In this document: in pieces, positions 3,497 to 63,225 of the stretch
Numbering within the stretch: the first letter of the stretch is position 1
Layout of the letters: each line of letters begins with the position of its first letter
Assembly (NCBI GenBank): GCA_976551045.1
Contig: CDPCPM010000196.1
Coordinates: forward strand, 2,728,001 to 2,792,000
Length of the DNA: 64,000 bases
Direction: 5' to 3'
Source: Glaucostegus cemiculus
Lineage: Eukaryota
Notes under the pieces: model-generated
Databases searched by the model: none
Seen by the model: the letters and a program-made list of their open reading frames with translations, nothing else
Told to the model about the DNA's origin: nothing
Position numbers and translations under genes: made by a program

Positions 3497-4130
3497 GTAA
3501 TTTGTTTCTCTCTCGTGGAACGTCCTCTCCAAGTGCTGCACACTTATCTAGCCGCAGCTGATTTAACAGTTCTGATCTTTGAGGTAATTATTGCGACATT
3601 AAAAATGGTTTTTCCCCATATTCATTCTCGAAATTGATCAGCGTTTGTCGTGTCAACATGACTCTCGTTTTAATTTCACTTGATTGTTCCGTCTGGCTAC
3701 CAGTGGCCTTCACCTTCGACCGATCGTTTTCACATTTTTTTTCTCTCAGATATAGGAGCAAAATATTGTTCCGAGGAAACTGCGGCTTTGTTGATTGCAC
3801 TGGTGTATTTCTTGATGATTAAAAAAAAATGTATATCCTCAGATTTCTATCCCTTGCGGATACGGGTAGCATTTTGGTGGTTTGGAATAATTTTAACATC
3901 ATTTGCACCATATCTGTTGATCATGTGACGATTCAGCGCCCTGAAATAAGGCATATTATAAGCCAATATAATGAGGACCTGATTCCGCGGGTGCAAGAAT
4001 GATGAGTATTCCGCAGATCAAGGGTTAACGAACCGAAGGATATCCATCACCCTATTGTTTACTGTATCTGGCAGATTCATACTACTGTGGGACGTAAATT
4101 GTGTAAGTTTCATTAGTGAATACTTCATAT
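3497..4130 (+). pseudogene. GPR139-like copy 1: decayed exon 2 only
   Basis: Acceptor ctacag at 3491-3496. Remnants ISLDCSVWLPVAFTFDR, SSDFYPLRIRVAFWWF and a TM6 SGRFILLW segment lie in different frames. No promoter or exon 1. Ends at a Penelope-like element. Confidence 0.85.
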
Positions 4131-4199
4131 ATATTCAGTGTTTAATAACATCTTCCCATGCCAGTAAAAATGCAGGGAGTTTATTCTAAATTGCTCACA

Positions 4200-5420
4200 A
4201 GACAACAACCTTACAGAAAAAAAACGAAACATCTTGAAACACACATAGGTCAGGCAGCATTCATAGAAGTTGAAAAGTTTATGTTTCGGGTACAAGGCAC
4301 TTGTGCGTACTGAGAAAGAGAGCAAAGGAAGTTAGTACTCAGTCGCAGAGAAGAAGATGGAGAGAAATAGATCAAAGTGAATAGCTCCGATAGGATGGAC
4401 CTAGTGCCCTTACAGGGGCAGTTTACAGAATATTAAAGCATATTATCTGCCCGTGAAATGTGTCGTAAATAGCGGAGCTAGGGGACATGTCCATCTGGCC
4501 GGATTGTACAGATAAAAATAAACTGAGTCATTATGATGTCGTGTAGAAATAGCAGTTCGGAAGCTGACACAAAGAAAGAGCAAAAAGTTCGAGAATTTGA
4601 TGATTAATATTGCATGCTGCAATGTAATCAGACTGAGGAAGATATGTTATTTCTCGCTTGAAACAGGCCTCATTGTACCAGAAACAGGGGTCACTGACTG
4701 GGAGGGATGGTGAATTAAAATTGAACGTGAGTGGAACCTCAGGGTTACTCCGGCGGACTGAATGCATATGCTGCATGAAACGATTGACCAGTCTGCGTTT
4801 GGTTTCTCCAGTGTAGAAGAGTCCACATTGTAAACACTGTATTCTCCATACTGGACTGGAAGAAGTGCAAGTGAACCGTTGCATCACATGGATTTTTATG
4901 GGAGGGGTGGGGACAAGGTAAGGTGGAAACGGATGAAATGACATGAATTTCATCTGCTGCAATTACATGGAAAAGTGTCGATACGGGAAGTGCGTATTGC
5001 AGTCGGACGAATGAAGCAGCGAGTCTGGAAGGGAACAATCTCTGTAAAAATCTGAAAGGGGGAGAGAGGTGAAATGTTTCGAGTGGTAGTATCGTGTTAC
5101 GCCTGTCGGAACTCGCTAAGGATAATCGGTTTAATGCAAGGGTCGTTGGGATATAAGGTTGGGATTAGAGGCATTACTTGCTCTGCCGTCGAGGACGGAG
5201 GGTGAGAGCAGAGGTGCAGGGATCAATGAGATGTTCAAGGGTTTTGCCAACGCCTGTAAAAGGAGCAACCACCGTCCAAATGCAACATATTTTAGACTTG
5301 CTGTGAGAAGGTAATGGAGTCCTTCAAAAAGATACGATGCACCGAATGGTTTGTTTTCATGCCGGATGAAGCAATGATTCCGATTATTAGGGACACACGC
5401 TGGAGTCCTTGTAGTCAGTA
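4200..5420 (-). mobile_element. Penelope-like retroelement remnant (GIY-YIG endonuclease plus pLTR)
   Basis: ORF 4531..4962 reads QRFTCTSSSPVWRIQCLQCGLFYTGETKRRLVNRFMQH..., a GIY-YIG domain with CxxC. A degenerate hammerhead-bearing terminus lies at ~4230-4320. Confidence 0.85.
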
Positions 5421-5424
5421 TACC

Positions 5425-7749: not shown

Positions 7750-7900
7750 TTTACTGACATTGGTGGCAGTTATTGCCCGGCAAACTTAATTAGCAGTATC
7801 AATTGTGATCTGGACTCCATTGTTTGTTTCTTTGACTGTCACTATCCAAATAATTCTGCACTGGTTTTGCATCATAAGGATTCACTTGGGTATAAAGTAT
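7750..7900 (+). promoter_or_regulatory. Full promoter cassette of copy 2
   Basis: GGTGGCAGTTATTGC, TAATTAGCAG (7787), TGACTGTCAC (7833), TTGCATCA, TATAAA (7891). Confidence 0.6.
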
Positions 7901-7960
7901 GACTTGAAAAGCAAGCGACGTGTTCATATTTACAACAGTAACCATCGCTTTTTCCCGAGC

Positions 7961-9018
7961 ATGGAACAGCCGGTAGTCATTCAGATAGAAAATATTTACT
8001 ACCCTATCCTTGCTATCGTTGGCGTTCCTGGTAAGTTGCTTAACATTTGCCCTCAGTCTTCCGCTGTTTAGCTTTTACGACTGGAAGTATCTTCCTGTTA
8101 CTTCGTCTTTTTACAGCTAATTTGTTGGCCATCGTCATTCTCCTCCGGGGAAAGTGTGGTCTCTCCAAATGCACCACCCGTTATCTGGTAGCCAGGGCCG
8201 TAACTAATTTAATAGTTCTAATCTTTGAGGTAATTTTCTACAGAAATTAAAAATGGATTTTTCCCATATTCATTCTTGAATTTAGCTCCCATTTGTAGTA
8301 TCAAATTGATTCCAGTTTTCATTTCCGTTGATTGCTCTATCTGGCTAACGGTGGCATTCACCTTCGATCAATTTGTTACCATTTGTTGTCAGAAGTTACG
8401 GGCAAAATACTGCACTGAAAAAACTGCGGATCGGGTGATCGCAGTGGTGTGTGTCTCAAGCATTCCCTGTATATTTCATCTACGTACCTCGAGAAATAAT
8501 TAACAAGGTAGCTTGGCCGTGCGGTGTATCACCAGATTTCTACAGGTTACCGATATGGGCAGCGTTTTGGTGGATTGAAACCATTTTAACCCCATTGGCG
8601 CCATTTCTATTGATCATGCTACTCAACGCTCTGACAATCAAGCATATTATGCAAGCCAGTAGAGTAAGGAGCAGACTCCGAGGTAGCAAGAAGGATGAGA
8701 GTTCCACAGATCAAGAGGTGGAGAACCGGAGGAAATCGATAATTCTATTGTTTTTCGTATCTGGAAGCTTCATACTTCTGTGGATGGTAAACTTCTTGTG
8801 TTTCATTAGTGTGCACATCATAGAAAGTCAGCATTTAAAAAACAAATTACAACGACCCATTTAAAATTACTGAACAATCCGGATACATGCTGAGGTGTTT
8901 AAGTGCTTGCACGGACACATGCATTTATGCGGTGTTCCAGACAAAATTCAGGAAGGAATTAAAAAATGTGATTAAGCGCTCCTTCACTTTGTTACTTAGT
9001 TCAATAAATTTTGAATAA
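7961..9018 (+). pseudogene. GPR139-like copy 2: full length, exon 1 7961..8030, 86-nt intron, exon 2 8117..9018, three frameshifts
   Basis: ATG, GT/AG and TATA are intact. Relative to copy 6: +1 nt near 8242, ~11-nt deletion near 8465, +1 A near 8840. Also D2.50->N and DRY->DQF. Confidence 0.93.
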
Positions 9019-17200: not shown

Positions 17201-18844
17201 TATATCCATCAAAAGCTTAACATAGATTTTACCCGAGTACTTTTCCATTTCCTTAGTTGTACCAGCCAGGTCCTCCTTATCAACGGCAATCTTCGACCTG
17301 AACAACTAACTTAGAAGCAGAGACAACAGGTCCGTAAAGAAGAAATCATTCTTCACCAGTACCTAATCTCAAGGATGTGCATCTGTACTCCCATAACTTC
17401 TCAAAACATTCCAACATTCCAAGTTGACACCATTTCGTGTTTCACACTGTTGTACATATGAAGGAGGAATCAGAATTAACTTTTGGTTAATTTATCACGT
17501 TCCTTACACTGACTGACTGCAAATAATGCCTTTGAATGTAATTTTTAAAAGTTTATATGCTAGCAATTTCAATCTGATTCGTATCTTCATATTAATGAAC
17601 ATGGTTTTGGCATGCGCATATTTTCGTTTTTTCCGGCGCACACCAGGGATCAATAGATGTATGGAAGGTTATGACAAGCCATAATTTATTCCTAATGAAT
17701 AGCTTGTTGCAGGGTTCCAACGCAAAACGTCAACTAATTCAATTCCACTCACAGATTCTGCTCGACCTATGGTGTATCTGCAACGAATTGTTTGTGACCA
17801 TTATATCTTATTTATTTCCTGTCAGAACTAACTCCTTCTTTACCTCAAACATTTCACATCCCGAATTAAAATTCAGTACAATGACAGGAGCATTTCTTGA
17901 ATTAAGAGTGAACTCAATGAAACTTGAGGATCATAGACCTGAAATTCGGGGCATTTTTTTAAAAGTCTGTAAACATCGGTTTCTTTCAATGTATAAGATA
18001 ATATCCCCTGGGTTAAACCTTCCGTGGTAAGTGTTTCCACTGATTGTATCGGTTCAAGCGACAATTTGTTCCCATTGTATGAGTTCCAGAAGTGGACGGA
18101 AGAGAAGGCAAAGTAAATCTCAATTTTCACTGGCTATTTGATTTTAGGAATAGAACAGTATGAACAGTTACACTCCTCACCTACGAAAACTAGGATATTC
18201 CGAAGATTTCTTTTTCTGTTAATTCCAGTGCAACATTTAAAACACAAGGTTGAATTTCATCTGGAATCTTCATTTACCTTCGCCCAATTTCTCCCAAATT
18301 TCCCAGTTGCTACAAACTTGTCAGATTCCCCATATGTCATTCTGTTTTCTGGATATATTTTGCTGTTCGTGTGACTATTCTTCTACCTGACACCAAGTGC
18401 TTTATTTTCATGATTTATAGCATTATGAAAAAAAAACAAGGGACGATTGATACATGAGACCTGAAAAGTGTCGATGCATTACATATATAACTATAGATTT
18501 ATTCACAGTTTCTTTTACATTCATCCGTCTGTACAAATATGTATCCTCAGATTCTGCAACATATTATCATTGCTACAGGAAATAGAGAAATTAAATAGAA
18601 GATGAAATGCATGCTCCCAATGATAATGCTCTCCATTCACTCTCTTATGTGACAGTTCTTATGCAGCAACGTCAGTCAGCAGCAGCATTTGTCATCTGGA
18701 TTACTTTGTTTAACTGACTGTAACTATCCTAATCATTTTGCGTTGCTCATGCTTCACAAGGTTTCTCTCGTGTATAATTATAAACTTTAATAGCCATCGA
18801 TGTATTCATACCATTGACAGCAAACGTATTTTATCCCCAAGACT

Positions 18845-20660
18845 GAAATAGCCAGTTATTATTCAGATGGAAAATACTTACTATCCTGTCCGCATATTAA
18901 GTTATCTCGGGGTTTCGTTGTGCAGCATTCATTGCACGAAGTATTTCTTTTACTATTTTGTCTGCGTGTTTTATACATGCCACTCATTGGCATCGAAAAG
19001 CCAGCCGACATATAACGTCTAGAAACGGTTGTCATAGTTTTTATAGGTAACAGCAATTAATATGACATTTCTCATTAATTTCGGACGCAAGCGTTAGGCT
19101 GGTAAGACATGTCGTGCATCCGTATGAAGAATCAGTCTGGATACATTGACTGAAATGGACATTCTTTGAATTCGAGAGGGTGCTAAATAACATGGAATGG
19201 ATATTCTATTGAAATTTTCTCTACCAAAGAGAACCAGAAGAGAACGTGACGCTCCCCAGATGTTATCTGTCTACCAGCTGGTGTTCTGCATATTCAGCGG
19301 GACTGCCGATCGTCCAGAGAATATACTATCTTCCCCATGTATTCTGAATTATCGAAGTCTACATGCTTGGGAGATCTCTGGTTTCAGAAGCTGTGTTCAC
19401 AAAATCTTAATCGGAAAATTGAAATGGGCTCAGAGTGAATAGGAAATAATGTTTTCCTTATGGTATGAAAGGCGGCAAGTCAGACCAATCTAGTCAATGG
19501 CTCCTCAAAGAGCAGTTATGCTTACCCACGAATTGTCATTATGTCACATTATTCGGAAATTCTCATCAACTTTCCCCAGATTCTACCACTTACCGACACA
19601 CTGGGCGAAATTTACAGCGGCCAAGAGAATATCCATATCTGTTGTGACAGGAATGAAGAGCTACCGGAGAATAAGCAGATGGTTACAGCAAAAACGTGCA
19701 AATACCACACAGAAAGCACTGGGGGTCATGATTGAAGCCCAGTCGCTGAAGCGATACCCGCTTTTCTCTTTTCAGAAAGAGGATATCAAAATATCGCACG
19801 GATTATAAAACTGTTTGAAAGGAAATTTTAAAAAAAAAATGTCTGTGTCGTTAATTTCAACCAGTGAATCTGGGACTGGTGCTAAGGAATTTATGAATGT
19901 ACATCGCAATTACCGTAGATATTTGTGCAGCACATCTTGGTCGGTTTTATATCAATAATTAAGATACTTGAACGTGAATGCACATCTAACGTTTCGTTGT
20001 CTTAAATTTGTGCTTGATTCTTCCTCGGAATTGACAAATACTTCATACTACAATGTCCAGCTCTGCAGTGCGAGTACTGCCAGACGCTATTTTTGACATT
20101 ATACAGTCCGTTCTAGTCGAGTGAAAGCGAATCATAATTTTTGCTGACTCGATTGAATCTAACAGTATTTAAAACAATCGAGTGTGTAAAAGATCCAGTG
20201 TGAATCGTTCAGTTCAGTGAAGCACATTGCAGTAGGATTTTTTCATTATTAATCAGCGACGTGAATCTACACGTACATCTGATTTTCAGAAGCAGAGTCA
20301 TATCAGCTATACTGGGGAAAGAAGTAGGTTTGAAAGTCACATAACCCGCACATTCCCTTGTGTCCAACTGTCAGATTAACTTTGCCCTACACAAATGGAT
20401 ATTGCTAATTGTAAACTGGTCTTTTCTGCAGCGAAATGTTGCCAATCGTCTTTGCTTCCCGGGGAACGTGTGGACTGCCCACATGCATTACTCTTTATCT
20501 GGCGTTCATGGCCGGACCTGATCATTGATTAAGTCTCCGGGAGGTAAAAGATGATATTCCCCATATTCATTTCTGAACTTAACACCTCGTTTTTTTTTTC
20601 CCATTGATTGCACCATCTGGCTAACAGCTGTCATCACTTGCAAAATATTTGTCACTACTA
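18845..20660 (+). pseudogene. GPR139-like copy 3: decayed exon 1 and 5' part of exon 2
   Basis: Promoter remnant 18640-18785. Exon-1 remnant (IIQMENTYYP) has no ATG or donor. Acceptor ctgcag ends at 20431, followed by RGTCGLPTCITLYL and PIDCTIWLT remnants. Truncated after TM3. Confidence 0.8.
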
Positions 20661-23361: not shown

Positions 23362-24705
23362 ATGGAACAATCATTTCTCATTCAGATGGAAAATATTTAC
23401 TGCCCTATCCTTGATATATATGCCGGTCCGAGAGAGCCGCTTATTTTTTTTTTACTGTCACTCTTTCGCTGTGTTGCTCAGGAATTAATTGTATGTGTAT
23501 TATTACTTGTAGATTTGTTTCAAAAGCAACATTTACATATGACGAACGATATTGGTTTCCGTAGTGTTGATAGGGAACGACAATTAATCTGACATGTCTC
23601 CGTAATTTAAGGTGCGGTCCCCAGGTTGAAACAGCAGGTCATGGAACTGTGTGATGTGTCAGAACGGATGGATTGGTTAAATTAAACACCCATAAGCTTC
23701 CGGACCTTCTGAAATGACATGAAAGGATATATGTATTATAATTCTGTCTACTACGGGAAACAGAAGAGCGTCTGCCACTCCCTAAAAATGTACCGGCAAA
23801 CTGCTGGCCCACAGCATGTTCCCACCGCGACTGCAGCATTAATAATCTGGCCGCAAATTTTCTCCCTTCAATTTGTATTTATGTTCGCACATTTAAATAA
23901 ATCTGGGCCCAGAGCTGAGAAATTTAAGGATATTAATAAAATGGAATTTCAGATTAACTTGTTTCTAGACAAGTGAATGATAGTAATATTAATTTCGATT
24001 TTTTATCGATAATTTGTCCACAAACATGATTCGCTCCCGGGACTGTGTGGTCTCTTCAAATGCATTACCCATTATGAGGTGTGCATGACCGTATCTGATT
24101 TAATATTGCTTGATATTTGAGGTAATTCTCTGCCATATTAAAAACTGATATGTCCCATATTCATTCCTGAACGTAACTCCCATTTGTCGTGTCAACTGGA
24201 CCTTCATTTCTGTGTCCAGTGATTGGTAAATCTGGGTAACTCTTACCTTCACCTCCGATCGATTTGTCAGCATTTGTTCTCCGATGTTACGAGCAGAATA
24301 TTGCACAGGGAAACCTACAGCTTTGGTGATAGCAGCGGCGTCTTTCATAAGTATTTTAAAAAGTATCCCAGTATATTTTGCCTTCGTACCTCGAGAAATA
24401 ATTGTGTCTAGGTCATGCGTTTTGCAATCAGACATATGCACCTTGCCACTATGGGCAGCGTATGCATCGTGTGATACAATTTTAATCGTATTTTCACTTT
24501 TTCATTGATCATTCTATTCAACTCTCTGTCAATCACCCATAGTATACCAGACAATAGAGTGAGAATCATATTCCGAGGAAGCAAGAACGATAACCATTCT
24601 GCAATTCAAGAGGCGGGGAAACGAAGAAAGATGAAGATATATTTTTTGTCGTCTATGACAGCTTCATAAGTCCGTGGGTAATAAGTTTCATATACTTGCT
24701 TAGCA
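23362..24705 (+). pseudogene. GPR139-like copy 4: both splice sites lost, stops, truncated in TM6 by CR1
   Basis: MEQSFLIQMENIYCPIL from ATG 23362; donor reads GAGAG. Exon 2 from ~24009 includes LRAEYCTGKPTALVI...IPVYFAFVPREII. Promoter cassette 23165-23310 with TAATTAG at 23208. Confidence 0.88.
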
Positions 24706-24709
24706 CACA

Positions 24710-26215
24710 CTGCTAAGAGTCCTGACACTACACTTCTATTCTGCTTTGGAATTCAATCTCCCAAAATGCCTCACTTCACACGATCCGGGTTGGACTCCAT
24801 CTGTCACTTCTCAGCCTAGTTCTACATTCTATAACTGTCCTGTTGTGATTCACAGCGACACTCTGTGCTATCCACAACACCACCAACCTTTGTATCATCA
24901 GCAAACTTATTAACCCACCCTGCTACGTCCTCATTAAACTCATTTATAAAAGTCGCAAAGATCACGGATCTCAGAACAGATCCCTGCGATACAACACTGG
25001 CCACAGACCTCCAGGCAGAATATATTCCGTCTACCACCCCACTCTCTCTTCCCATGGGAGAGACATGTATGAATCCACACATCCATGTTTCCCTAGATCC
25101 CATGCCTCCTGACTATCTGAATAAAACTTCCATGAGGAACCTTATCCAAAGCATGACTAAATTCCATGGACACCACATCCACTGCTCGACCTTCATCAAT
25201 GTGCTTTGTCACATCCTTAAAAAAAATCATTCAGGCTCGTGAAGCACGACCTGCCCCTCACAAAGCCATACTGACTGTACCTAAACAGCCTATGTTATTC
25301 CAAATGTCAACAAATCCTGTCTGTAAATATCTTCTCCAGTGATGTGTCCACCACTGAAATAAGGATCACTGGTCTTTAATTCTCTAGGCTGTCCCTACTC
25401 ACTTTCTTGAGAAAGAAACAACATTTGCCACCCTATGATCATCTAGCACTACCACTGTGGACAGTGAGGACACAAATATCATCGCCAATGTTCCAGCAAT
25501 CTCTCCCCTTGCTTTCCGTAATAACCTTGGAGATATCCCATCCGTCCCCGGTGACTTATCTATCCCAACGTTTATCAAAAGTTTCAACATATCCTCTTCC
25601 CTCACGTCGACATGTCCTAGCATATAAACATGCCGTTCGCCATCCTCACAAATGTCAATATCTCTTCTTTTTGGTGAATACTGAAGCAAAGTATTCAAGG
25701 GCCTCCCCTGCTTCTTCTGACTCCAGGCACCTGTTTCCTCTTCTATCCCTGATCTTTACGACCCGCCCTCCAGTCATCCTCTTATTCTTTACGTACATGC
25801 AGAACGCCTTGGGGATTTCCTAGATTCTACTCACCAAGGACTTCTGATGTACATTTCTAGCTCTCCTAATGTGTTCTGAAACTCCGTCCTGGTTGCCTTG
25901 GAACTCGCCGGAGCCCTGTCTGGTCCATACTTACTTAACCCCAAGTAAGCTTCTTTGTTCTTCTGGTCAAGACATTCTACAGCTTGTTTCAACTACGGTT
26001 CCTTCACGCTAACAGTATTTCCCTATGTCACTGGGACAAACCTAATCAGAGCCTTATGAAAGCATACCTCAAAAAACCTCCATATTTCCGCCGTGCTCTT
26101 CCCCAAGAACATCTTTTTTCACAATGTCCGCTCCCACGTTCCTGCATAACAGCATCCTAATTCCCCCTCCCCCAATTAAATAATTTCTCATCTCCCTATC
26201 TCTCTCCAAAGCTAT
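24710..26215 (-). mobile_element. CR1 LINE ORF2 fragment truncating copy 4
   Basis: DKSPGTDGISPRLLRKARGEIAGTLAMIF and VASVVSQGSVL...FINEF...NKFADDTKVGGVVDS. Confidence 0.9.
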
Positions 26216-28778
26216 GGTAAAGGTTAATATCAGGAACATATTGTTCCTGGACCATTCTAATCGGATGTGTTCTATTGGTTGGGAACAGAGCCTTATTTAC
26301 AGACTACATGTACACGCCTTGCCAAATAAAGTGCTAAGTACAGTGAAGTGGTGATTGAGTTTTCCTTAACAATTGATTACCTTTTCTCTGCGTGAGAGGG
26401 GCCGAAACTTCCGCTAATGTTTTTTGTGCTTCGTGGTTCTTACTGTGCAAGATATAGTTTTGCTGATACACGGTCAGTGCGTATGACTCATTCCCCTCCA
26501 ATGGTACTATCAACTGTCATTATATTCAGTACATTTGATGTTGTTACTATTTATAAAAAGGGGGAGCATGGCTGATTCTAAGGAAAATCAAACTCCATGG
26601 TGTGGTAGGACCACTGGTTTTGTATTGAATATTGTAGTATGAATGGATTGCCCCGAAGAACAATGAAAGAGCAAATGGAGTTCAATCAAGACAAGCCTGA
26701 GCCATAACTTCTGGGGAGAGATTGCAATCAAGGAGATACACAATAACTTGAAGAAATGTGAACGGAATAAAGCAACATACTACTGCTTCTCATCTACAGC
26801 AAGATGAGGTGATTATTACAGAGAGCATTGTACAAAAACGGAGTTATCTTTCCCAAACTGTAATATAATGCGATGTAAAGCACTGCATACAAGTCTAGTA
26901 GTCATTTGTCAGCAAGTATTTGCTCGCATCGGGGAGGGGGGCTGTATAGAGGTGATTTACTAAGATGTTGATCTGGTTGTCGGAAACTTAAACCATGAAA
27001 AGAGATGGACAAGGCACGTTTCCCTCTTATGTTTTTTTTGAAAGGTGTGCTTTAGTAATGCATATAAATTATTTTTGCTTTGTTAGAACGACTAAAAAAG
27101 AATCAATTTCTTCTTGAATAACTCAGTAGCTGCAGCTTGAATGGTTGTCACCACTCTGACTAATGGAAGATGACATTGGTTCCTGTTGTCCTGGTATGAG
27201 CAGATAGACTGAACAGAGTCCTGCTTTGCAATTTCCGACGAATTGGCAGAAAAAGCCATAAAACACTTGAAGTACTCCACAGGTCAGGTAGCATATTTTA
27301 AAAGGAAAAAAAAAATCCACTCAGAGACTCCGAGCATATCGTTTGTATGGTAAGTGGTATCAGTGGATTTGCCGTAATTTTAGCTGGGAATTTTGCCTGG
27401 ACTTTTATCCAGCCTGAATATTGTTCATTTTTTGCACTTTCGATCCGTAAGGATAGACCTGTTAGCAGAGCCTCGTAAAGTGAACGACGACAAACAAACG
27501 TAGTGGTTAATACTCGGGCATGTTACATTCTCGTGGCGAAGGATTTTAAGGCTAGTAGACATCCACATCTCAAAATACGTCATATTTTGTATCTGCACCT
27601 CATCCGTTGTTCGGAGCTTCTTTTGTATTTTCGTTAGGTGGTACAATTTGACGTGCGTTTTAGGAGCTTAGCGAAATAGGCATCACATCAGCTTCCTGAC
27701 AGTGCTGGAGACCTCAGATCAGTCGTGATTTTGACTGCGGTCTGTGTAAATATTCCACGTTCTCACATTAACTGCATAGGTTCCTCCGAGTGCATATTGG
27801 TAGCTTCTATTTGTCCTGGATGTCATCCTTCCTTCATGAAAAGGCGGCGATCAGTTTCCTGGGAGTATATTGAAGGTCTCAAACTGTGGCAGGAGACAGA
27901 GGAACAGATATACAGACAAATTCAGCTCGTGAAAGATCCTTTCAACTGCGTATTATTGAGGTCATCGGTCTTTCTCCGAGGAACAACAGGAAGCTTCCAG
28001 CTCCTCCACATATATTCAGCAGCTCTCCAGTCAGTTACTTAGTGGGAAACAGGGAGCTTTTCACTGAAGGTGTGCAGCTGTTATATTCAAATTTGAAAGC
28101 CATACAGAAGGTTGCAATTTATTCCTCAGCCATATGCTCTGAAAACTCAAGTTAAGCTAGTACTAAATGCAAGTGTCACGACTGGACGTTATCTACGAGA
28201 AAACTTAACAATTCTCAAGTGGAAACCTGCAATCCCTGTGGCCAGATGCAACACCACCATCTCTTGTCCTGTATTCAGAATACACTCCAGAATCAGAGGG
28301 CATAGACGGTTACAGAAGAGTAAGATACCATTCAGCCCATCAACTTCATTCATGAAATCCTAACATTTGCGAGCATAATGTTTCATCTCTAGTACGGGAA
28401 AGATAGTTATGTAGTTCTATGTTCTGTTGTCTGTTACCTAATCATTTTGTCTACATAAATTTCAACTCCATGACTGGCCTTTCTGTATGACCACAATTAA
28501 AAAATATGTTGCTTAAACTTACTTTGCCTTGACTTTGCTTACGAAAATGTTCAGGCAATAACCCTGGCACATTGTATGTTCACTAAGATGGTTCACAAAC
28601 AGAATTAACAGACTGCCTGCAGATATTCTGTCATACCATTCTGTGATTATAATCGGATGCATATCCGTATATTGAATTACATCTGGTACTAATGATAAGG
28701 AAATTAAGGATATTAATACGATGAACTTGTTCCTAGACAACTGAATGATAGTAATTTTATGTCCTCTTTTTGCTCCAG

Positions 28779-33819: not shown

Positions 33820-33905
33820 TAATTTCTTTGTTTGCTTCCGTGATTGTCACAACCCAATCATTTTGCTCTGTTTATGCATCACAAGATTTCCCTCGGGTAT
33901 AAATT
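33820..33905 (+). promoter_or_regulatory. Core promoter of intact copy 6 (CCAAT, TTTATGCATCAC block, TATA)
   Basis: TATAAA at 33898-33903, 71 nt before the ATG (70 and 71 nt in copies 2 and 10). CCAATCA lies ~45 nt upstream of the TATA. The block recurs in front of other copies. Confidence 0.7.
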
Positions 33906-33968
33906 ATGAACTTTAAATACAAGAGACCTGTTAACACTGCTGACATAACACATCACAACTTTCCGAGC

Positions 33969-38389: not shown

Positions 38390-38700
38390 ACCCATTTGCA
38401 CCATTTCTGTTGATTATGGTTCTTAACGCCTCTGAGAGTCAAACATATGATGGAAGACAATCAATTTAGGCAGGGTTTAAGAGGGCGCTAGAACGATGAA
38501 CAGGTGGAGAACAGGAGAAATTCAATCATTCTATTCGGCGCTGTGTCTGGCAGCTTCAACATTCTATGGATTGTAGATTTCATGAGTTTCAGTAGTGTAC
38601 ACTTCACGCATTCTCAGTTTTTGCAAACCAATCTCAATGGCCAATTTACCATTGCATAACAAATCAGATTTTTGCTGAGCTACCAGATTTCATACTAAAC
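38390..38700 (+). pseudogene. GPR139-like copy 7: isolated TM5-TM7 fragment
   Basis: PFAPFLLIMVLNA and EQVENRRNSIILFGAVSGSFNILW are readable. Bounded on the left by a Rex1 fragment and on the right by the unit's downstream block. Confidence 0.85.
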
Positions 38701-41340: not shown

Positions 41341-43080
41341 GGTGGGGGGGAACGTACTAGACTCCTGGCAGGAGGGAGTGTTGCGTCTATTTTGGATGCC
41401 ACCATGGCACCTGAGTCTTTCAGGCGCTAGTAGAAGTCTGTAACACGCAGCTGATCTCTGTGCAGTGCTTATTTCGGATTATTCAGATCAAGAAATATCC
41501 ATTGATATACGCGTTGTTTGAGTCATCAATTCTTCTCCAAGAAACAAAGGAAGCCTCGAGATGTTAGATATATTACGAGCAGAACTCTATCCATCCAGTT
41601 TAACAGCGACGCGGTCACTGAACGGGGTCTGCCCTCATTTAGGTTTGAAGGGTAGTGTATGTAGACTTTTATGAACAAAGACATAAAGCTTGATTTCCCG
41701 TCCTCCAGCACAAGCCATAAATCTGTAGTTGTGTGCAAGATTATGACAAGGGCGTAATTTCTTTTTTCAGTGTTGCATGAACTCAATTTTCTTTTGCCTC
41801 ATTTTTGCATTTCACATCCCGAGTGCGAGTTCAATAGAAAGACAGAAGTATGCATCGCAGCATATCATTAATGCACACTAAAGTAAAGGACCTGTGTGAT
41901 TCATAGACGTGAACCTCTAAGTAAATATTTAAATATGCGTATATTCCAGCTTCTTCCAACATGAGTGAATGATTTTCCTTGAGTAACCTATTGTTTCAGT
42001 CACTGTCATTCAGTATTTCTGCAGTGTATTTACTTTCAAAACACGGGAAATTACATTTAATTGCAATATTTTCAGAAATGAATGGGATGGGGAATACCAT
42101 TCTTTAGAAAATGTATTATTTTTCAGGAAATCCGAAATATTTCAGCAGCTGAACACCTCTACAGTTGAAACAGACACCTTATGAAAAACGTTCCGTCATA
42201 TATATTGAAACGCTTAAAACTCATTGTCGAATTTATTGCGAACCCCCTTTTCAGCTTTTCCTTATATCCCCCAAAAACTCCTGTTTCTACAAATTTTTCA
42301 CCTTTCCCTCATTTCTCCCCAAAGCTAAAGTTTCTACAAATTTGCCAACTTTTCCAGTTGCTTGCGTTGTCTGTCTGCAGTTATTTGTTTATGCGATTTT
42401 TCTTCCATCTTCCACGTTACCCTAAAGATCGACACTCAACGATTTAGGAATAATGTTTTCCCCTCCCATCAAAATTTCGAACTGTCCATGAACCCATGAA
42501 TACTGGCTTACTATTCTTTTTTCGGGTACAATTTATTTCTTTATTAAATTTATTGTCATGCTTTGGTCTTTCTCTGCTGTCACAGATCAACAGGTTTCAT
42601 ATGATGAGTGGCAACAAACCTGATTCTATCTCACACCTGGCACCCCATTTTAATTATTTACACCATTATTTGTTGGGGGGACGAGGGGATTCTTGATGAA
42701 TCAGACCTAAAATATGGTAATGTATCATAAATACGCCCACGGATTTCCTGACCGTTCCTTGCATGTGCCTCTCAAATATATTATCAGATTCTGTAAAATG
42801 ATATCTTCGCCACAGGAAATCAGAAATCAAGAACGTTAACTAATGTATTTTCTAACATAATTCTTTCTGTTTACCTACGTTGGTGGCTGTTGCTGCGCAA
42901 CTTCCATAATTAGCAGCAGCAATGCTGTTCTGGTTTTCTTTGTTTGTTTATATCACTGTCAGATATCCGAATTATCTGGACTGTTTATTCATCGCAAGGT
43001 TGCTCTCGGGACCAACATACAGACTTTAAGATGAAATGAGCTCTACATGCACTGACAGGAATCGACGCTTCTTTCCGATC

Positions 43081-44902
43081 ATAGAACAGTCTGCACTAAT
43101 TCAGTACAAATATCCTTGCCATAGTTGGCGTCCGGGTAAACCGCTTTCTATTTTCTATCAGTCTTTACTGTTTTATAAATCTATGTGAAATTATTAATCT
43201 GTTTGATGGACACCTGCAAATTATTAGTATTGAAAATGCAACTTGCGGAGCCTGCGAAACGACATCAAAAATAGTTGTATAATAAATGTGCCTGCTAAGG
43301 AGAAGCAGAATGGAATCCACTCCTCCCCATTACATTTTCTGGCAACGGCTGACCCGCGTATGTTCTACGGGGCAGTGGGTCGGCCACAGAATTGTCAGAC
43401 TGCCCGCAGATGTTCTGGTTTACCGGTATATAATTGTAATTTTATTTATATCGACATATTGAAATTGATCGGTGAATAGTACTGGTGATTTAAGAATGAC
43501 CGCATGTGTCACTGCAGATGTAAGTGAAACACATTGTGGTCGGAGTTTCATCAGTATTCAACCCGCTTCAGCTTGGAACCACTTCTTCCGATTCCGTCAT
43601 GAAGCACATGTACGATTCTACATATGAAGTGACAGAAGGTTATGCAAGAAGGTGTGACGCTTGAGATTTATCAGTTGATCAGCCAGTATTCTACACGCTC
43701 GCCATTATGCACTGCTCAAATGAATGAGGTCAGATTCGATAGAACCCCCTAGACTTTAATACAACCGATACTTGATCCAGTGGAAATCTCTCGGTTCAGT
43801 CAAGCGAGGCACTGTAGTACTTTATTCATAATTTGTTGTATCACTGAAGCTTGTTTTACGGAATCTTGGGCAGATTGGCTACAGTAGGGGAAAGTGGGTT
43901 TGAAAGGCAAATAATGAAGGAGAAGACAGAGCAACTTCTTCCTCGGCCAATGAATGGTGACAAATGTAATGTCGTTATTTTCTGCAGCTGATTTGTTGGC
44001 GATCGTCATTCTAACCCGGGGCAAATGTGGTCTCTGCAACTGCATCACCCGTTATATGCCTTCTGTGGCAGTCGCTGAATTACTGGTTCTGATATTTGAG
44101 TTAATTCTCCATGAGATAAAAGGCGACTATTTTCGAGATTCATTCTTCAGTTTAGCTCCCATTTGTATTTTCAACATGCATTTTCAATTTATTTTCGTCC
44201 ATTGATTGCTCCATTTGGCTCACGGTGGCCTTCACTTTCTATCGGTTTGTCACCATTTGTTGACAGAAGATACAAGCAAAATACTACATCGAAAAACTGA
44301 AGCTCGGATGGTAGCACTGGTGTATTCCTTAAGCATTTTAGAAAATATGCTTATTGATTTTACTCACCACCCTCGAGAAATAATTCAGAATGTAGCTTGG
44401 TACTGTATTGTGAAATCAGATTTCTACACCTTCCCGATATGGATGACATTTTGGTGGTTTGAAACGATATTAACCCCATTTGTACTATTTCTGTTGACCA
44501 TGCTGCTCAACGCCCTGACAATAAGGCATATTATGCAAGCCAGTAGATTCCGTAGCGGGATCCGAAGGAACAAGAATGATGAGAGTTCTAGTGAACAAGA
44601 GGGGGAGAACCGAAGGAAGTCGATCGTTTTATTATTTGCTGTATCTGGCAGTTTCATATTGCTGTGGATGTTAAATTTCCTGTGATTCATTAGTGTGCAC
44701 TTCACAGATTCTGAGTTCAAAACAAACAAATTACAACGACCCATTTACCATTGCACAGCAAACCGGATATGTGCTGAGATGTGTGAGTTCATGCACGGAC
44801 ACGTTTATTTATGTGGCGTGCCAGACTAAATTCAGGCAGGAATTCAAACGTGTGATTCGGAGTCCCTTCGCTTTCTTGACTAATTCAATAAAGTGTATTT
44901 AA
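43081..44902 (+). pseudogene. GPR139-like copy 8: ATG->ATA, shortened exon 1, exon 2 43988..44902 with frameshifts and stops
   Basis: ORF pieces 43954..44205, 44206..44685 and 44693..44902 tile the receptor. TGA near 44261 and at 44683. TATA lost; TAATTAG at 42907. Confidence 0.92.
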
Positions 44903-51023: not shown

Positions 51024-53010
51024 ATGATGCAGTCGGTACTCATTCAGGAAGAACATACTTACTACTCTATCCTTGCCATCGTTGCCGTTCTGGTAAGTTG
51101 CTCATTATTTTATATTACTCTTTTGATGTTCAGACTTTATTGATAACTGCCTGTCTGCTATTAGCAGTATATTTGATGGACACATGCCAATTATCGGCAT
51201 TGAAAACCCAACTGACATGTAAAGAACGAAAATGCCTTCCATCCTGTTGGTAGGGAATGCAAATTAATCTTAATACTTTAGGGTGCGGCTCCTTGGCTGC
51301 AAACACAGGTCATGCGTCTGTGTGAAGTGGCAGCATGGAGATATTGGCTAAATTTAACACTCTAAGTTTGCAGCGACTGCGAAAGGACATGAAATGATAA
51401 ATGTATTATAATTGTGACTACCAGTGAGTTAACGATGGGCACCTGCTACTCCCCGAAATCTTCTGGCTAACTACTGACGCACAGTAGGTTCAGCGGGACA
51501 GAGGGTAGCACACAAAATTAACAGACCTCATGCATATGATGCACCTCATCAGCATAGAATTGTATTTGGTTTTATGAACACGTGTTGAAATAAATTTGTA
51601 ACATATACTGAGGAATTTAAGTATGGTCACATCTGTTTCAGCAGATATTTGTGAAACGCATCGTGTTCAGAATTTCAGCAATAGTCAGAACATTTCAACG
51701 TGGGTGCACTTCTTCAGATTCTCGTCTGAAAGCAGATGCAGTGTTCTGCCCATGACCTCACAGAATTTTATTCAACAAGGTGAGACGTTCGCGAGAGGTT
51801 GGCACAACAGCCGCTATTCTTAATGCTCCGAATTCCGCTCTGATCAAGTGAATGTGGTCTGATTCGGTTATACCTGTCAGACGTTAATACAACGGATATT
51901 TGTTACGTTGGGAATCTGTCAGTGTGGTCAAGCCATAAGCTTCACTATTTTATTAATCAATGGTTCTTGTTTATTAGAATCACGGGCATATTGGCTGTCC
52001 TCGTGAAACAAGTAGTTTTGAATGCAGAATAATGCACTGATATTTCTGTAACGAACAGTCAGTATCGCTGCTCTCTCGACCGATGAATGTTGGTAAATTT
52101 AGATTCGTTTTTGTTGCACGTAATTTGTTGACCATTCTCACTCTGTCCCGGAGAAAGTGTGATCTTTCCAAACACAACATGCGTTATATGATGTCCATGT
52201 CCGCAGATGAATTGCAGCTTGAAATGATTAAGGTAATTCTCCATGAGATTAAATATGCCTATTTCCAAGAGGCATTCCAGAATTTAACCGCCACATGTAC
52301 TTTCAAGTCGGTCCTCAATACTTTTTATGCCATTGATTGTTCCGTCTGGATAACAGCGGCATTAACCATCGATCAATGTTATTGGAAATTATAAGCAAAA
52401 CACTGCACCAAAAACACTGCGACTCGAGTGATAGCAGCACTGTTGATCTAAAGTATTTTGCAGAATATTTTTTCTGTGTCCATTGAGAAATAATTGACAA
52501 TGTTGATTGGTACTACATTTGGAAATGTAGTACCAATTTCGACACCCGTCTGATATTCGAAGCATTTTTGTAGCTTGAAACGATTTCAACACCGTTTGCA
52601 CAATTTTATTTGAACAGTCCACACAACGCCCTGACAATCCGGCATAGTATGCAAGCCAATCGAATGTGAGCGGACTCCGCGGGAGAAGAATGATGTGAGT
52701 TCCACAGCTTAAGTGGTGGAATTCCGGAAGCAGAGAATCATTGTCTTAGTCACTGTATCTGGCCGGTTCCTTCGACTGTGGATGGTAAATAATGTGAGTT
52801 TAATTGGAGTAGACTTTACAGATTCCCATTTAAAGGAAACAGATTGCAACAATCTATTTATCATTGCAGAACAAACAGAATATATGTTGAGGTGTTTGAG
52901 TGCTGGCACGAACACGTTTATTTATGCGGTATTCCAGACAAATTTCAGGAATGAATTAAAATATGGGATGAAGAGGCCCTGCGCTTTCTGTACTAATTCA
53001 ATAGATAACT
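51024..53010 (+). pseudogene. GPR139-like copy 9: 69-nt exon 1, acceptor lost, promoter deleted
   Basis: MMQSVLIQEEHTYYSILAIVAVL at 51024..51092, then GTAAG. Exon 2 from ~52120 (NLLTILTLSRRKCDLSK; AIDCSVWIT; YMLRCLSAGTNTFIYAVFQTNFRNELK). Confidence 0.9.
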
Positions 53011-57235: not shown

Positions 57236-59248
57236 ATGGGGCAGCCGATAATCATTCAGATAGAAAATATATATTACCCTATCTTTGCCGTTATAGGCGT
57301 TCCCGGTAAGTGGATTATTATTTATCTTCAGTCTTTTGATGTTAAGCCTTTACTGTTAATTCTCTGTGTGCTATTAGTAATGTGTTTGATGAGCACATGC
57401 CAATTATTGGCATTGAAAATCTAGCCGCCAAACAAAGAACGGAAGTGACTTCCATAGTGTTCATGAGCAACCACAATCAAACGACATGTCTTGGTAATTT
57501 TTGGCGCAAGTCGTCTGCTGGAAAGGATGTAGTGCCTCTGTGTGAAGTGACATAACGGGAGGATTGGCTAAATTAGACATTCATGGGTTTCGGTGTCTAT
57601 AAAAAGATAGAATGATAACTGTGTTATAATTGTCTCTACCAAGGAGGCTGTATGATGCTGTCCAAAGATGTTCTGCAAAGTGCTGACGCACACTATGTTC
57701 AGTGGGCCAGTCGTGGCCTACAGTAATAGCAGACTGCGCGCAAATGTTCTGTCTTATATGATTGTAATTGTATTTATATCCCCATATTGAAATAAATGTT
57801 TGACTCGTACCGACTAATTTTAGGATGGCCACACAAGTTACCCAGAATCTTTCAGACATTTCATGTTTCGTGTTCCATAAATAATCAAAACATTTCAACT
57901 GGGGTACAATATTTCTGATTTGCGTCTCAAAATAAAAGCACAGATCTGCTGATGAAGTAACAGAAATTTACATAGCACTGTGTGAACCTTGAGACTTATC
58001 AGCTTATTAGCCAGTATTGTTAACGTTTGACAGTATTCACTGGTGAAATGAATGGAATCTGATTCGATTAAACTGGACAGACCAGAATACAGTCTATATT
58101 TCGTCTGGTGGGAAACCGTTAGTCCAGTTGAGCCCTGCGCGCCAGGATTTTGAACATCTTCAGTTATGTCGCGAATCACTGCGTCTTATAATTCAGAAAC
58201 ATGTCCACATCGGTTATAAGAGGTAAAGAAGTCGATTAAAATGTCAGTTAATCCACTTAATTTCTTGCGACGAGCAGCCAGAATAACTGCTTTCCAGACC
58301 AATGAATGGTGATAAATTAAATTCTGTTCATTCCTGCAGCTAATTTGTTCGCCATCGTCATTCTGTCGCGGGGGAAGTGTGGTCTCTCCAAATGCATCAC
58401 GCGTTATATGCTGGCTATGGCCGTCGCTGATTTGCTGGTTGTGGTGATTGAGGTAATTATCTATGAGCTGAAAGATGGCTATTTCCCCTATACATTCGTG
58501 AATTTCACTCCCTTTTGTATTCTCAGTGTGGTCCTCAATTTTGTTTCCATTGATTGCTCCATTCGGCTGACGGTGGCCTTCACCTTCGATCGATTTGTCA
58601 CCATTTGTTGCCAGAATATACGAAAAAATACTGCAGCGAAAAAAACTGCAGCTCGGTAATAGCACTGGCGTATTCCGTAAGCATTTTAGAAAATATACTA
58701 ATGTATTTTGCCACCAACATCGAGAAATAATTGATAACGGAGCTTGGTTTTGTATTGTGAAATCAGATTTCTACAACTTACCAATATGGGTAACATATTG
58801 GTGGCTTGAAACCCTTTTAAAGCCATTTGTACCATTTTTGTTGATCATGCTGCTCAACGTCCTGACAATCAGACATATTATAGAAGCCAACAGAGTAAGG
58901 AACGGGCTAAGAGGGAAAAAGTATGATGACAGTTCCACAGATCAAGAGGTGGAGAACCGGAAGAAGTCGATCGTTCTATTACTCCCTGTATCTGGCAGCT
59001 TCATACTATTGTGAACGGTAAATTTCGCGTGTTTCATTAGTGTGCAATTCACAGATTCTCAGTTTATACTAACAAATTACAACGATCCATTTACCATTGC
59101 AGAACAAATCGTATATATGTTGAGATGTTTGAGTTCATGCACGAACAAGTTTATTTTCGCCGTGTTCCAGAATAAAATCAAGGAAAAAATAAAACATGTG
59201 ATTCGGAGCCCTTTCGTTTTTCTGACTAAATCAATAACGTCTCTTTAA
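57236..59248 (+). pseudogene. GPR139-like copy 10: exon 1 57236..57305, exon 2 58340..59248; three -1 deletions and W6.48->TGA
   Basis: ATG, GT/AG and TATA are intact and the frame is open through DRF. Single-base deletions near 58625, 58656 and 58708; TGA at 59012-59014. Confidence 0.88.
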
Positions 59249-62200
59249 TGTTTTAGTTAAAGTAAACTTCGTATCCAAGGGACATTGTTCGACTTCTATT
59301 TAACTTTTTGCATCTTTCTCTCCAAATTCAAAGGAGGCCATTCACGAGTGCAGACCGGCTGTCAGAATAATTTGTTGACAAATTCTCTTCCTTTTGCCCC
59401 TAAAACTTGTTGTCTCACATCCAAACGACGTTCCTCGAACTACCCAGTGCTCACGCGCACAGGATGAAATTTACAGCGACCACCCAATCTACAAACACGA
59501 ATATTTTGGATAAAAGTTAGAACCAGAAAATATGGAGTAAACCGGCATGGTGATAGTGAGAACGGTGAAGCTGCGCGCAGGCAGCAGCGGAGTACAGGAT
59601 CGAACCTCCGACCCTTGTGTTCTAAGCCTCTGAGTCACCGCATTACCAATTAATTTTATTTTGTGCCATTACGTTTCGGGCATATTGTCTATTAATACAA
59701 AGTAGTGACCGGTTGGAATTGTGCTCCACCTGAGCATCTTATATCAGCGTGAATGAGATCAATGATCATTAAGAATGCAAGTTCATCTGTTCTTTTGTGC
59801 ATTTTTCTCTTGCTATGTTTATTTAATATTAACCGTGTATTGCCGCAGATTTTAATTATTATTTTCAATATATCTAAATATCAGAAACATTTAAAACCAT
59901 TCCAGTTGCCTCAAAGTGGTCTTGAGGAGGATAGCTTCTGTCGACCAGGCGGCATTTGTGGCCCTTCCATTTGCTGTGGATCTGAGCCGTCCGCATTTCG
60001 CTGAAGAAGGTTATCCCGATCAGTATAGGTTAGAAGAGGAGGACAGGCAGAGCAAATACGGCCCAATAGCAAGACATCTTGTTTATGGCGTGTAAACAGT
60101 TTGAATAATATCTCTTGCCAATAGAGCTGTAACACTCGGGTTGAGGGAAGCAGAGCAGTGATATTCTCAATGTCTGCAGCTATATATGGTTTATGACAAA
60201 GCGACTGAATGAAATTTCTGCGAACGAACTATCTCAAATTGGCTTGGTAATGACTTATTGAATTTAATAAACGTAACTTTGGATTCATTGTTATCAACAA
60301 CTTATTGTATTTGAACGATTCCAATTTAATTAGTTGTATTAGTTGTGAACTAAAGCCTCACGTTGGGCTGACATGGACTATGCACACAGAAATAAAGTGA
60401 AAATTAGAATGAGTAAGTTATCTTGTATATTTGTTTCAAAGAAAACAGTGCTGATTGCTGCGTGCGAGGTGCCTGGACCTTGCGTCATGTTATTAGTCGC
60501 TGTATGTTTCTTACTGTGTTAAATCGACTGCTGTTAATATAGGATCTGTCCGTGTGCAACAATCATCTCCCATTCTACTCCACACGGGACCATTATTGAA
60601 AAAAAAATGTTTTAATACATGTGAAAATAGAGCGAGTAGAGCAACTGCCTCACGGGTGCAGAGACCCAGGCTCGATACTGACCTGGAGTGCGTTCTGTGT
60701 GGAGTTCCCACGTTTTCCCTTTATTTGTACTGTTTCCGCTAAGTGTTCTCCCTTTCCATGACACATCCCAAGTACGTGTTATCTGTTAGGTTAATGGGTC
60801 AGTGTAATTTGCCCTTTCTCTGTTGGTAAGTGAAAAATCCTTAGCTGAGTTGATGGGAGCGTGGAGCAAGGTGGTACGTGGATATAAATTTCAGATTTGT
60901 GGAAACGGGTGATTGATTGGTCGTCAGGATCGTGTGGTTAAGGGCCTCTATCAATTCAGCTTATTTCCATGGAGTTGTGAGTCTCCAGGTGCCTCGATAT
61001 TGTATTCTGCTGTTCTGTTTTCTGCAGATCCAGAGTGACAACGTTTTCTGGGGTGAAATCCTCAGACACATGGCCTTGGTGATATTAATAGATGGAAAAC
61101 AGTACCTGGTAGGCCGTAGCGGAATGCCGAGAAGTACAGCTCCAGACGAGGTCTGATGAGGACGAAAACTAGAGAGTCATCACAGAGTCTGACAGTACAG
61201 AAGGTGCCCTTCAGCCTAACATGTCCAAGCCGATATTTTTGCCAACCTGCACTAATCCCATTTGTCCACATTAGGAGAATATCCTTCCAAGTGTTATTAA
61301 GTTAATTCGCCGTTGAAATACCTCTTAATCAAATGTTGTAGTTTATTTCACTATCACTTTTGGAACAAGGTTTCATATATTATTCACTCTCTGGCTATAA
61401 ACAAATATCACCCCCCCCCAACCCCGCCGCCCCAAAGACATGCCTTTGAGACGACCTTCCACTGATCTCAAACCTATGCCCTATAATTTTGACAACTTGA
61501 TCGTGGGAATGGAATAACTAACACTGGCTAAGACAGTGATGGGCAACTTCCAGATAATATTTAATGGAATATTCTCCTAAAAGGCTTACATCATCATGCA
61601 AATGTGAGGTATGGGTGGTGATCACGTTGCTGGGAGGCCTCTTCAAACTCGACAGCAGATAGAGAGAAAACTCGCAGGGTTGTCGTGGCGGATTTCTGCC
61701 TTCCGATGTTAATGGGGATTAGGTTGATGGGAAAGTCAGAGAGTGGGTAAATTATTTAATGTGCATCCAGGGCCTCTATAGAGCAAGTACGTAGGTGGTC
61801 AACTGGATATATTGAATTACGGATCGTAATCTTCGGGAATATAGCTGGATAACTGTTTAGATAATGTGTGGGGAGTTTTTCAGAGATAGTCAGCATATCG
61901 ACTAAGTTATTGGTAAATCCATAATAGTTTTCAGGAAAGCTTTTAAATTACGTCTTGGCTGACAGAAGATGATTTAAGTTTCGGATGACAGGGGATAATT
62001 TGAGTTACGATTGAAAGGAAAAGAAACATTTGTCAGATGAAGGAATCTGAAAAAGGACAAGATCCGTGAGAAATATAAAGGAAAAAAGGAAGAACAGAAA
62101 TGACTTCTGTGTCAATCAATTCCTGTCACTGCGACTGTTCTTTCCCTTCCAAAACACCATGAATTACTTCTCATTGCAATATTTATGGTAATTGACAGGA

Positions 62201-63156
62201 AATAAAATAAATGAACTTTTTAAAAGATGGGTTGATTTGTTTTGATATATCCGAAATATTTCAGTAGCGGAATATCCCTATTATGAAAACAATTATAGGA
62301 TGTAAAATAATTGGTCAATTAAAGTGGGATGATTGAAACACTATACAGAATGTTTGGCTAAATCCCACCAAATTCACGTGAAATCTTCCAAAATATCCAC
62401 CTTTAGAAACTTGCCAAATTCCACATTTGCATGCGATTGACTGCATATATTTCGGTGTTTATTTGATTCTTATCCATCTCCTTCAGAATCCTGATGACCC
62501 ACATTCAACGATTTGGGACGAGATTATTCAGACGGATTTGTGTCGCTGTCCATGAACTCATGGACACTAATTCGTTATTCCTGTTTGCGGATTGTTTACT
62601 TATGTTCCAATTCATCTTAACTTATATGCATTTGCACCGTTCTACTGCCGCAAATCAACACGTTTCACGTCATCTGTCAGTGATAGTAAACCTAATTCTG
62701 ATTTTAATCTTAAACCAAGCACTTCATTTTAATTATTTCCACTATTATTTCAAGGAGAATTTTTTAATGCATGAGACCTAAAGTGTGCCTGCTATTCACA
62801 TACATGCCCTTGAAATGCTTCATAGTTATTTGCCTGCATTAATCAAATTATATCCTCAGATTCTGCAAAAATATAATTGCTACAAGAAACCTGACATCAA
62901 ATATATTTAGTAATGGGCAGTATGTTCGAAATTCTCCTACGATTTTGCTTATTAGTTGGAAGATATTGCTCAGTAGCCATAATTAGCAGCAGTAATCGAG
63001 ATCTGGTTTTCTTTGTTTCGTTTTTAAAAGACTGTCACCAATCCCAATGATTTTGCCCTGCTCATGCATCACAAAGATTCTTTCGGCTATCACTTGGAAA
63101 TTCAGAAAACGTGTGACATGTTCGTATAAGTTCAGCAATATCGCTTCACTCCAAGG

Positions 63157-63225
63157 GCGAAACAGCTGGTACTCGTTCAGAATGGAAATATTTACATCCT
63201 GATACTTGCCATAATTGGAGTTTCT
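63157..63225 (+). pseudogene. GPR139-like copy 11: exon-1 remnant without ATG; exon 2 not in window
   Basis: xKQLVLVQNGNIYILILAIIGVS followed by GTGAG. Promoter cassette 62945-63095 (TAATTAG at 62980, TATA lost). Intron homology continues to ~63670. Confidence 0.8.

Follow-up and report, generated by a model that had tools for sequence, protein, structure and literature searches.

The 64-kb stretch of Glaucostegus cemiculus DNA analysed here (positions 2728001-2792000 of contig CDPCPM010000196.1, hereafter C196, in an assembly of 2.85 Gb; the whole stretch is called the window) forms part of a tandem cluster that belongs to a mega-family of class A G-protein-coupled receptors (GPCRs) of cartilaginous fishes. 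Eleven receptor copies, all on the forward strand, span 3.5-63.2 kb of the window, and a single one of them is intact. Very probably, the family constitutes a repertoire for outside chemicals, whatever the tissue. Its seat in a chemosensory epithelium is held at just short of an even chance, and we put forward, as a tentative proposal, that it would be a fifth olfactory receptor family of sharks, rays and chimaeras, recruited independently from a GPR139-related peptide or amino-acid receptor and comprising hundreds to thousands of genes.

The coding sequence of the intact gene (Table 1) amounts to 981 nt, corresponding to 326 amino acids with no internal stop, and its product matches 7tm_1 (E 4.6e-15) as the sole Pfam family at E<=0.001. 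The AlphaFold2 model displays seven helices and a hairpin in the second extracellular loop (ECL2), with a predicted local distance difference test score (pLDDT) of 91.3. Annotated relatives, P0003 among them, have an N-terminus that matches the peptide encoded by exon 1. None of the seven Logan proteins starts with this peptide, hence they show no splicing, and run X1, guessed to be RNA (share 0.07), provided 56 short contigs of 80-95% likeness with no splice joint and was not used as evidence. Of the ten non-intact copies, seven retain the greater part of exon 2 (local-alignment scores of 649-1249 vs a shuffled maximum of 120) and are each damaged by 3-15 frameshifting indels and 1-6 stops, and the three others are fragments. 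A preliminary description of this DNA had counted 11 same-strand copies in 60 kb, which the alignments confirm. Its statement that only one is intact holds within the window and fails for the family: the surrounding 234 kb contain at least 26 exon-2 copies, of which 5 are intact by a strict test and 1 is a borderline case. The short N-terminus that it reported is real (N1.50 is residue 25), but it is common to single-copy amphibian and coelacanth relatives and is thus no sign of sensory use. As regards the promoter said to be shared by the copies, approximately 170 nt before the ATG align to 10-17 other copies across the same 234 kb, and hardly any copy aligns to the middle of the intron, so that the shared upstream conservation is real and the promoter role putative. 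An EBF/Olf-1-like site immediately upstream of the TATA-like box of the window gene is not kept in the paralogues and was rejected as evidence of olfactory expression.

The family extends far beyond the window. The best 140 of 18,480 genome candidates were scored with the window protein; all have E <1e-96, 111 are located on C196 and 107 are stop-free within the match. The C196 matches extend from 1.02 Mb to 5.61 Mb, which delimits a cluster of ~4.5 Mb. A 10-codon family motif in transmembrane helix (TM) 3 has 5,633 exact matches in the genome (2,807 + 2,826), the reversed control having 0, and it misses some genes, being absent from 3 of 20 intact C196 picks. Open copies, defined as those whose exon 2 is uninterrupted over the family profile, were sought in 80 matches, 40 from the first 100 of the motif (all on C1) and 40 from the first 100 of a synonymous variant (725 matches, 14 contigs). 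In this sample, which is not random and in which exon 1 was unchecked for most, 13/40 and 23/40 were open, i.e. 36/80. A share of 45% (Wilson 35-56%) of the 5,633 matches gives ~2,500 (1,950-3,150) open copies as assembled. Distinct genes are fewer because near-identical copies are common, and division by a guessed redundancy of 2-4 leads to an estimate of roughly 600-1,300 distinct open genes. Positions 21412-51409 of the window have a twin 969 kb away (C196:3718001-3748000); the two differ by 19 mismatches and 4 gaps over 30 kb (99.917% identity), and the twin is either a haplotype duplicate left in the assembly or a segmental duplication of very recent origin; many C196 matches pair at an offset of ~969 kb. 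For three genes checked, the near-identical copies (>=99%) number 2, 2 and 14, the last being those of L028 (C1:955744-956654), spread at 99-100% identity across 11 contigs, which is beyond what two haplotypes explain. A simply doubled diploid assembly was considered and rejected, since GPR139, GPR142 and two related genes on C233 and C46 occur once each and some family genes 14 times. The birth-and-death array that had been suspected is borne out, with many intact paralogues, by the motif matches and by the open share of the sample.

The nearest named proteins to the window protein belong to a skate (83%) and a stingray (80%). Among its best 120 relatives, the 113 that carry an organism name are all from sharks, rays or skates, and most bear the label 'probable GPR139', as had been anticipated. 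Matching protein clusters number 1,883 at E<=0.001, unrelated GPCRs included, and 113, at 50% identity, at E<=1e-30. The chimaera protein P0131, 52% identical, is nested inside the family in the tree, and 15 family members stand on one side of a branch (95/84). A tree of 32 proteins (a subset of an earlier 61-protein set, with added rows) makes a gene of amphibians, sturgeon and reedfish the sister of the family (99/96) and sets GPR139 and GPR142 apart in a group of their own (100/100). A wider group of GPR139/142/'GPR210' receives 99/98 with an outgroup of only two long-branch proteins. Amphioxus has relatives as well, and this tree gives no resolved order among the three orphan lineages, the amphioxus genes and GPR139/142. 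The family thus does not belong to the clade of GPR139 and GPR142 but to a neighbouring lineage, which also includes single-copy fish genes that probably correspond to the 'GPR210' orphans.

The relationship to GPR139 is supported by other lines of evidence. Among solved receptors, the family profile finds GPR139 best (104 bits), neurotensin receptor 1 reaching 83 bits, and a GPR139 query of this genome ranks GPR142 next and then the family copies (128 scored). The acceptor of the second exon of GPR139 in this genome has the same place in TM1 and the same phase as that of the window gene. GPR139 itself is a single gene on C73, which carries the GPR139 motif and is 22% identical to the window protein; GPR142, named by 55% identity and its place in the tree, is a single gene on C301, 20% identical. 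The window gene is accordingly not the 1:1 orthologue of GPR139, and the earlier designation 'GPR139/142-like' holds in the sense of closest vertebrate relatives by profile and TM1 intron, not of membership of their clade. The family further differs from both in the loss of R6.51 and P6.50, and in a cysteine pair between C3.25 and ECL2; the loop previously called divergent has the usual disulfide cysteines, and it is GPR139/142 that are without C3.25. Foldseek fails to separate class A receptors, GPR139 being 7th among near-equal matches, and the ESM Atlas returned generic GPCR clusters only.

A query with the salamander protein led to 25 proteins: 20 amphibian clusters, each of a different named species, 1 from a sturgeon and 4 from elasmobranchs. 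The amphibian gene has no one-to-one match in this genome, the best of 119 scored being 38% identical. Among bony vertebrates, only amphibians and two early-branching ray-finned fishes (sturgeon and reedfish) yielded the counterpart; none turned up in teleosts or amniotes in searches that need shared words, one of which scored only 8,000 candidates, and which do not demonstrate loss. Two more lineages are single in this genome, L008 (C233) and L009 (C46), which group with coelacanth/silverside and bichir/anchovy proteins. In Rinne et al. (2019), 'GPR210' is an orphan placed beside GPR139/142 and has three subtypes, which occur in fishes and coelacanth (PMC6504862). The C233 and C46 genes are probably such subtypes, resembling 'GPR210A/B' by inferred match and not by accession, and the expanded family, together with the amphibian/sturgeon/reedfish gene, would represent a third orphan lineage of this kind. 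As a candidate for the founder locus, we note the pair L137 and L138 (C414:698320 and 727381), which matches the early-branching skate protein P0312 at 75% and 68%; P0312 has Trp-Pro-Arg in TM6, like GPR139. The records of the reedfish counterpart (P0313) and of a second GPR139-related orphan (P0275) both give a longest contig of 316,334,699, and the two probably lie on the same chromosome.

Core and ligand-facing side were compared in a set of open copies reduced from 72 to 63 by removal of redundancy at 98%. D2.50, C3.25, D3.49, R3.50, C45.50, P5.50, N5.58, F6.44 and N7.49 are invariant in all 63. The hallmarks of class A are present (seven helices with D2.50, C3.25, DRx, P5.50, W6.48 and N7.49/Y7.53), yet P6.50 is absent from 62/63 copies and position 7.50 is Thr in 60/63. 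For the pocket, we took the usual class A set, 32 positions placed by helix numbering. Of 22 independent sister pairs, 3 with an identity below 80% were dropped; over the other 19, omega, the ratio of non-synonymous to synonymous rates, is 0.21-0.24 in the inner half, 0.49-0.57 in the pocket and 0.55-0.64 in the loops. The ratio of pocket to inner-helix divergence is 2.22 over all 63 copies and 2.38 over the 20 of the window's subfamily, vs 0.17 in 22 amphibian sequences (pocket 0.036, inner helices 0.209). The pocket is thus nearly invariant in amphibians and hypervariable in the copies of this genome, where the ratio lies at 2.2-2.5. A codon site model of our own making, run on a fixed tree (not PAML, and with gene conversion not screened), assigns omega 5.3 to 9.5% of codons in a second subfamily of 13 copies, with twice the log-likelihood difference (2dL) at 172; all 23 sites >0.9 are on the outer half, and re-alignment without gap-adjacent columns leaves 2dL 167 and 22 sites. 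A third subfamily of 7 copies yields omega 3.1, 2dL 40 and 18 sites, mostly outer. The pocket diversification announced in the preliminary description is upheld, with positive selection in two of three subfamilies tested, not in that of the window. Among the amphibian, sturgeon and reedfish counterparts, D2.50 is Asn in 22/22 amphibian sequences and in the sturgeon and Ser in the reedfish, and W6.48 is Asn in both fishes.

GPR139 requires F109, H187, W241 and N271 for Trp/Phe (PMC5430874); the corresponding positions were assigned by alignment. The window protein keeps F3.33 and W6.48, has Glu for H187 and Tyr for N271, and has lost the basic residue at 6.51; Asn occurs at the N271 position in 4/63 copies. 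The amphibian gene keeps F, W and N together with Lys at 6.51, invariant in 22/22. With two of the four required residues replaced, Trp/Phe sensing by the window protein in the manner of GPR139 is doubtful. We infer that the ancestor would have responded to a single ligand, similar to an amino acid or a peptide, and that the expanded copies would recognise many others.

We propose that the family descends from a single-copy orphan receptor related to GPR139/142, whose fixed pocket would persist in amphibians, sturgeon and reedfish; its duplication started before the split of chimaeras and elasmobranchs, as the tree indicates. Its copies keep the signalling core, vary the ligand-facing side and die often, and it is the conjunction of these three features that leads to the reading of a receptor repertoire, which would serve a broad and changing set of outside chemicals. 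A chemosensory epithelium would be the likeliest site, with one or a few copies per cell. Tandem clusters, a high share of pseudogenes, compact genes and a conserved core with a varied pocket are common to OR, TAAR, V1R/ORA and V2R/OlfC families, from which the present one differs by the absence of a Pfam olfactory match for the window protein, a different ancestry and one TM1 intron. The largest OR repertoires hold 2,399 genes (PMC10869828), and the number of open copies is of the same order. The known olfactory repertoires of cartilaginous fishes comprise 20-62 genes (PMC10869828); the size of the present repertoire and the gap between these few known receptors and the many sensory neurons (PMC10869828, PMC6368271) speak for smell.

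Several observations weigh against an olfactory or otherwise sensory repertoire. Positive selection was not detected in the window's subfamily (20 copies; 2dL ~0 from three starting points), and in window-type pairs (n=9) omega of the pocket is 0.29-0.34 vs 0.21-0.24 in the core, with overlapping intervals; this subfamily represents an old branch that evolves more slowly, under purifying selection, and whose pocket varies moderately. Region-wide omega is not confidently above 1 in any class. An omega of 5 and very recent amplification suit an arms race with pathogens at least as well as smell. TRIM exons (RING, B-box, PRY-SPRY) are found at 5.58, 5.63 and 5.65 Mb of C196, at or just past the cluster end (69/254 long open reading frames scanned). 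The main text of the catshark sensory-organ paper is without mention of the family (PMC11979771).

The strongest of the alternatives, although we regard it as unlikely, is a repertoire for immune or mucosal surveillance, in which the receptors, comparable to formyl-peptide and Mas-related receptors (FPR and MRGPR), would enable leukocytes or barrier epithelia to sense peptides and metabolites of microbes or parasites. The high omega values mostly confined to the outer face, the recent amplification exemplified by L028 and the TRIM exons interleaved with and adjoining the cluster end are in keeping with such a role, as are an annotated bamboo-shark model that joins a family member to a RING protein and the fact that, after GPR139, the nearest solved relatives are peptide receptors. 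FPR and MRGPR, which are immune and sensory peptide receptors, likewise form lineage-specific clusters with positively selected outer faces. The TRIM linkage may, however, merely mark a duplication-prone region, and a repertoire of such size is typical of olfaction and not of known immune GPCR families; FPR and MRGPR number tens of genes, not hundreds to thousands. Neither these nor nematode srw receptors, which with others are invertebrate expansions from the FMRFamide/sex-peptide receptor group, are orthologous to the family by any test run; srw-type Pfam matches occur on a few family members and on look-alike clusters. The public gene models P0388 and P0167, in which family members are joined to C2H2 zinc fingers (whale shark) or clustered with a RING protein (bamboo shark), are probably annotation joins of neighbouring genes.

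It is improbable that the amplification was mostly passive, segmental duplication and some assembly redundancy having multiplied a few functional genes whose pocket variation would reflect relaxed constraint. The twin at 969 kb, the 2-14 near-identical copies per gene, the 44/80 sampled motif matches that are broken and the lack of detected positive selection in the window's subfamily would all be expected. Against this stand the invariant micro-switches and a core omega of ~0.2, the many divergent members across many species, and the single state of GPR139, GPR142 and two other relatives in the same assembly; moreover, omega well above 1 at outer sites is not producible by relaxation. Least probable of all is a system of reproductive or social recognition, with receptors on gametes, the reproductive tract or pheromone-sensing cells reading peptides of conspecifics: strong positive selection is common in such genes, but hundreds of dead copies and deep subfamilies common to sharks and rays suit a broad repertoire over a matched ligand-receptor pair. 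The grouping of GPR139/142 with MIP/sex-peptide, FMRFamide and proctolin receptors (PMC8514136) would also be in its favour.

Table 1. Receptor copies of the window and TRIM exons near the cluster end. Plain coordinates are window positions; those of the TRIM exons are given by locus.
Feature	Coordinates	Strand	Description
Conserved upstream stretch of intact gene	33801..33968	+	TATA-like box 33898-33903; putative promoter and 5' untranslated region
Intact gene, exon 1	33969..34038	+	23 codons + 1 base, encoding the N-terminus and the beginning of TM1; GT donor at 34039
Intact gene, intron	34039..35603	+	GT..AG, phase 1, inside TM1 at the Ala codon preceding N1.50; splice inferred from sequence
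Intact gene, exon 2	35604..36514	+	remainder of TM1 through stop; class A receptor with seven TM helices
Pseudogene copy 1	3506..4313	+	exon 2 with 15 frameshifting indels and 3 stops; exon 1 not found (no score exceeding that of shuffled sequence)
Pseudogene copy 2	7961..9014	+	exon 1 7961-8030, exon 2 8117-9014; 4 frameshifting indels, 1 stop
Decayed copy 3	18744..20656	+	remains of upstream stretch and exon 1 around 18744-18917; exon 2 reduced to a 5' fragment, 20437-20656
Pseudogene copy 4	23362..24790	+	exon 1 23362-23430, exon 2 24010-24790 without 3' end; 5 frameshifting indels, 3 stops
Pseudogene copy 5	28752..29554	+	exon 2 only; 12 frameshifting indels, 6 stops
Copy 7	38391..38679	+	3' fragment of exon 2
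Pseudogene copy 8	42982..44902	+	decayed exon 1 region 42982-43141, exon 2 43988-44902; 3 frameshifting indels, 2 stops
Pseudogene copy 9	51024..53002	+	exon 1 from 51024, exon 2 52121-53002; 7 frameshifting indels, 5 stops
Pseudogene copy 10	57236..59248	+	exon 1 57236-57305, exon 2 58340-59248; 4 frameshifting indels, 1 stop
Copy 11	63059..63231	+	upstream stretch and decayed exon 1 (63160-63228) only
TRIM exon	L141:2228-3064		
TRIM exon	L146:4392-4955		
TRIM exon	L148:692-1288		

The intron of copy 2 (8031-8116) measures merely 86 nt vs 1,565 nt in the intact gene, and no exon 2 of copy 11 is present in the window or the following 10 kb. The segments 43334-46453 and 57668-60718 correspond to an old unit duplication including flanks (68% over 3.1 kb), and 21432-22231 and 36946-37766 to a younger interspersed repeat (88% over 0.8 kb); the window also contains 3 tandem repeats. 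Five further open reading frames of the window have no Pfam match. The open reading frame at 4531-4953 on the reverse strand, without a Pfam match, resembles the endonuclease part of a Penelope-like retroelement. Past the cluster end (L141-L160, C196 5.58-5.78 Mb), the GC content climbs from ~0.37-0.44 to 0.57. On L145 (702-4496, reverse strand) lies a pol frame of a long-terminal-repeat retrotransposon with the integrase ahead of the reverse transcriptase, an order that is unusual and known from Gmr1-like elements, and L1-like elements are nearby.

Expanded GPCR arrays are known; an expansion from this ancestor, at this scale and in this lineage, appears undescribed. No description of the family was found in the papers that could be reached, a scope that lies outside subscription papers and the catshark supplement. 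The papers on the catshark, the whale shark and vertebrate chemoreceptors make no mention of it in the passages searched (PMC11979771, PMC8455134, PMC10869828), and GPR139 terms are absent from the searchable supplementary files of PMC10115646, PMC11406177 and PMC13188829 and from part of those of PMC8455134. As for 'GPR210', Rinne et al. is alone among the relevant papers; its main text contains neither 'shark' nor 'cartilag' and describes no expansion (PMC6504862). Cartilaginous fishes, to which the single-copy C233 and C46 orphans belong, are outside the coverage of the paper that named GPR210.

Surveys call cartilaginous fishes poor in GPCRs (PMC10869828, PMC8455134), their low counts reflecting a search confined to known families. 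With hundreds to thousands of open receptor genes hidden under the label 'probable GPR139', the receptor count changes, whatever the tissue, and the old puzzle of good chemical sensing by sharks and rays with few receptors becomes testable. The conserved single-copy gene of Xenopus (XP_031757816.1) and salamanders offers a laboratory handle on the ancestral ligand. If the family is immune, the earliest-branching jawed vertebrates alive today would possess a system of innate sensing that has gone unrecognised. If it is olfactory, its size in this genome would rival that of the largest OR repertoires of vertebrates, the view that cartilaginous fishes smell with only 20-62 receptors would be overturned, and the single-copy gene of amphibians and sturgeon would mark the ancestral ligand.

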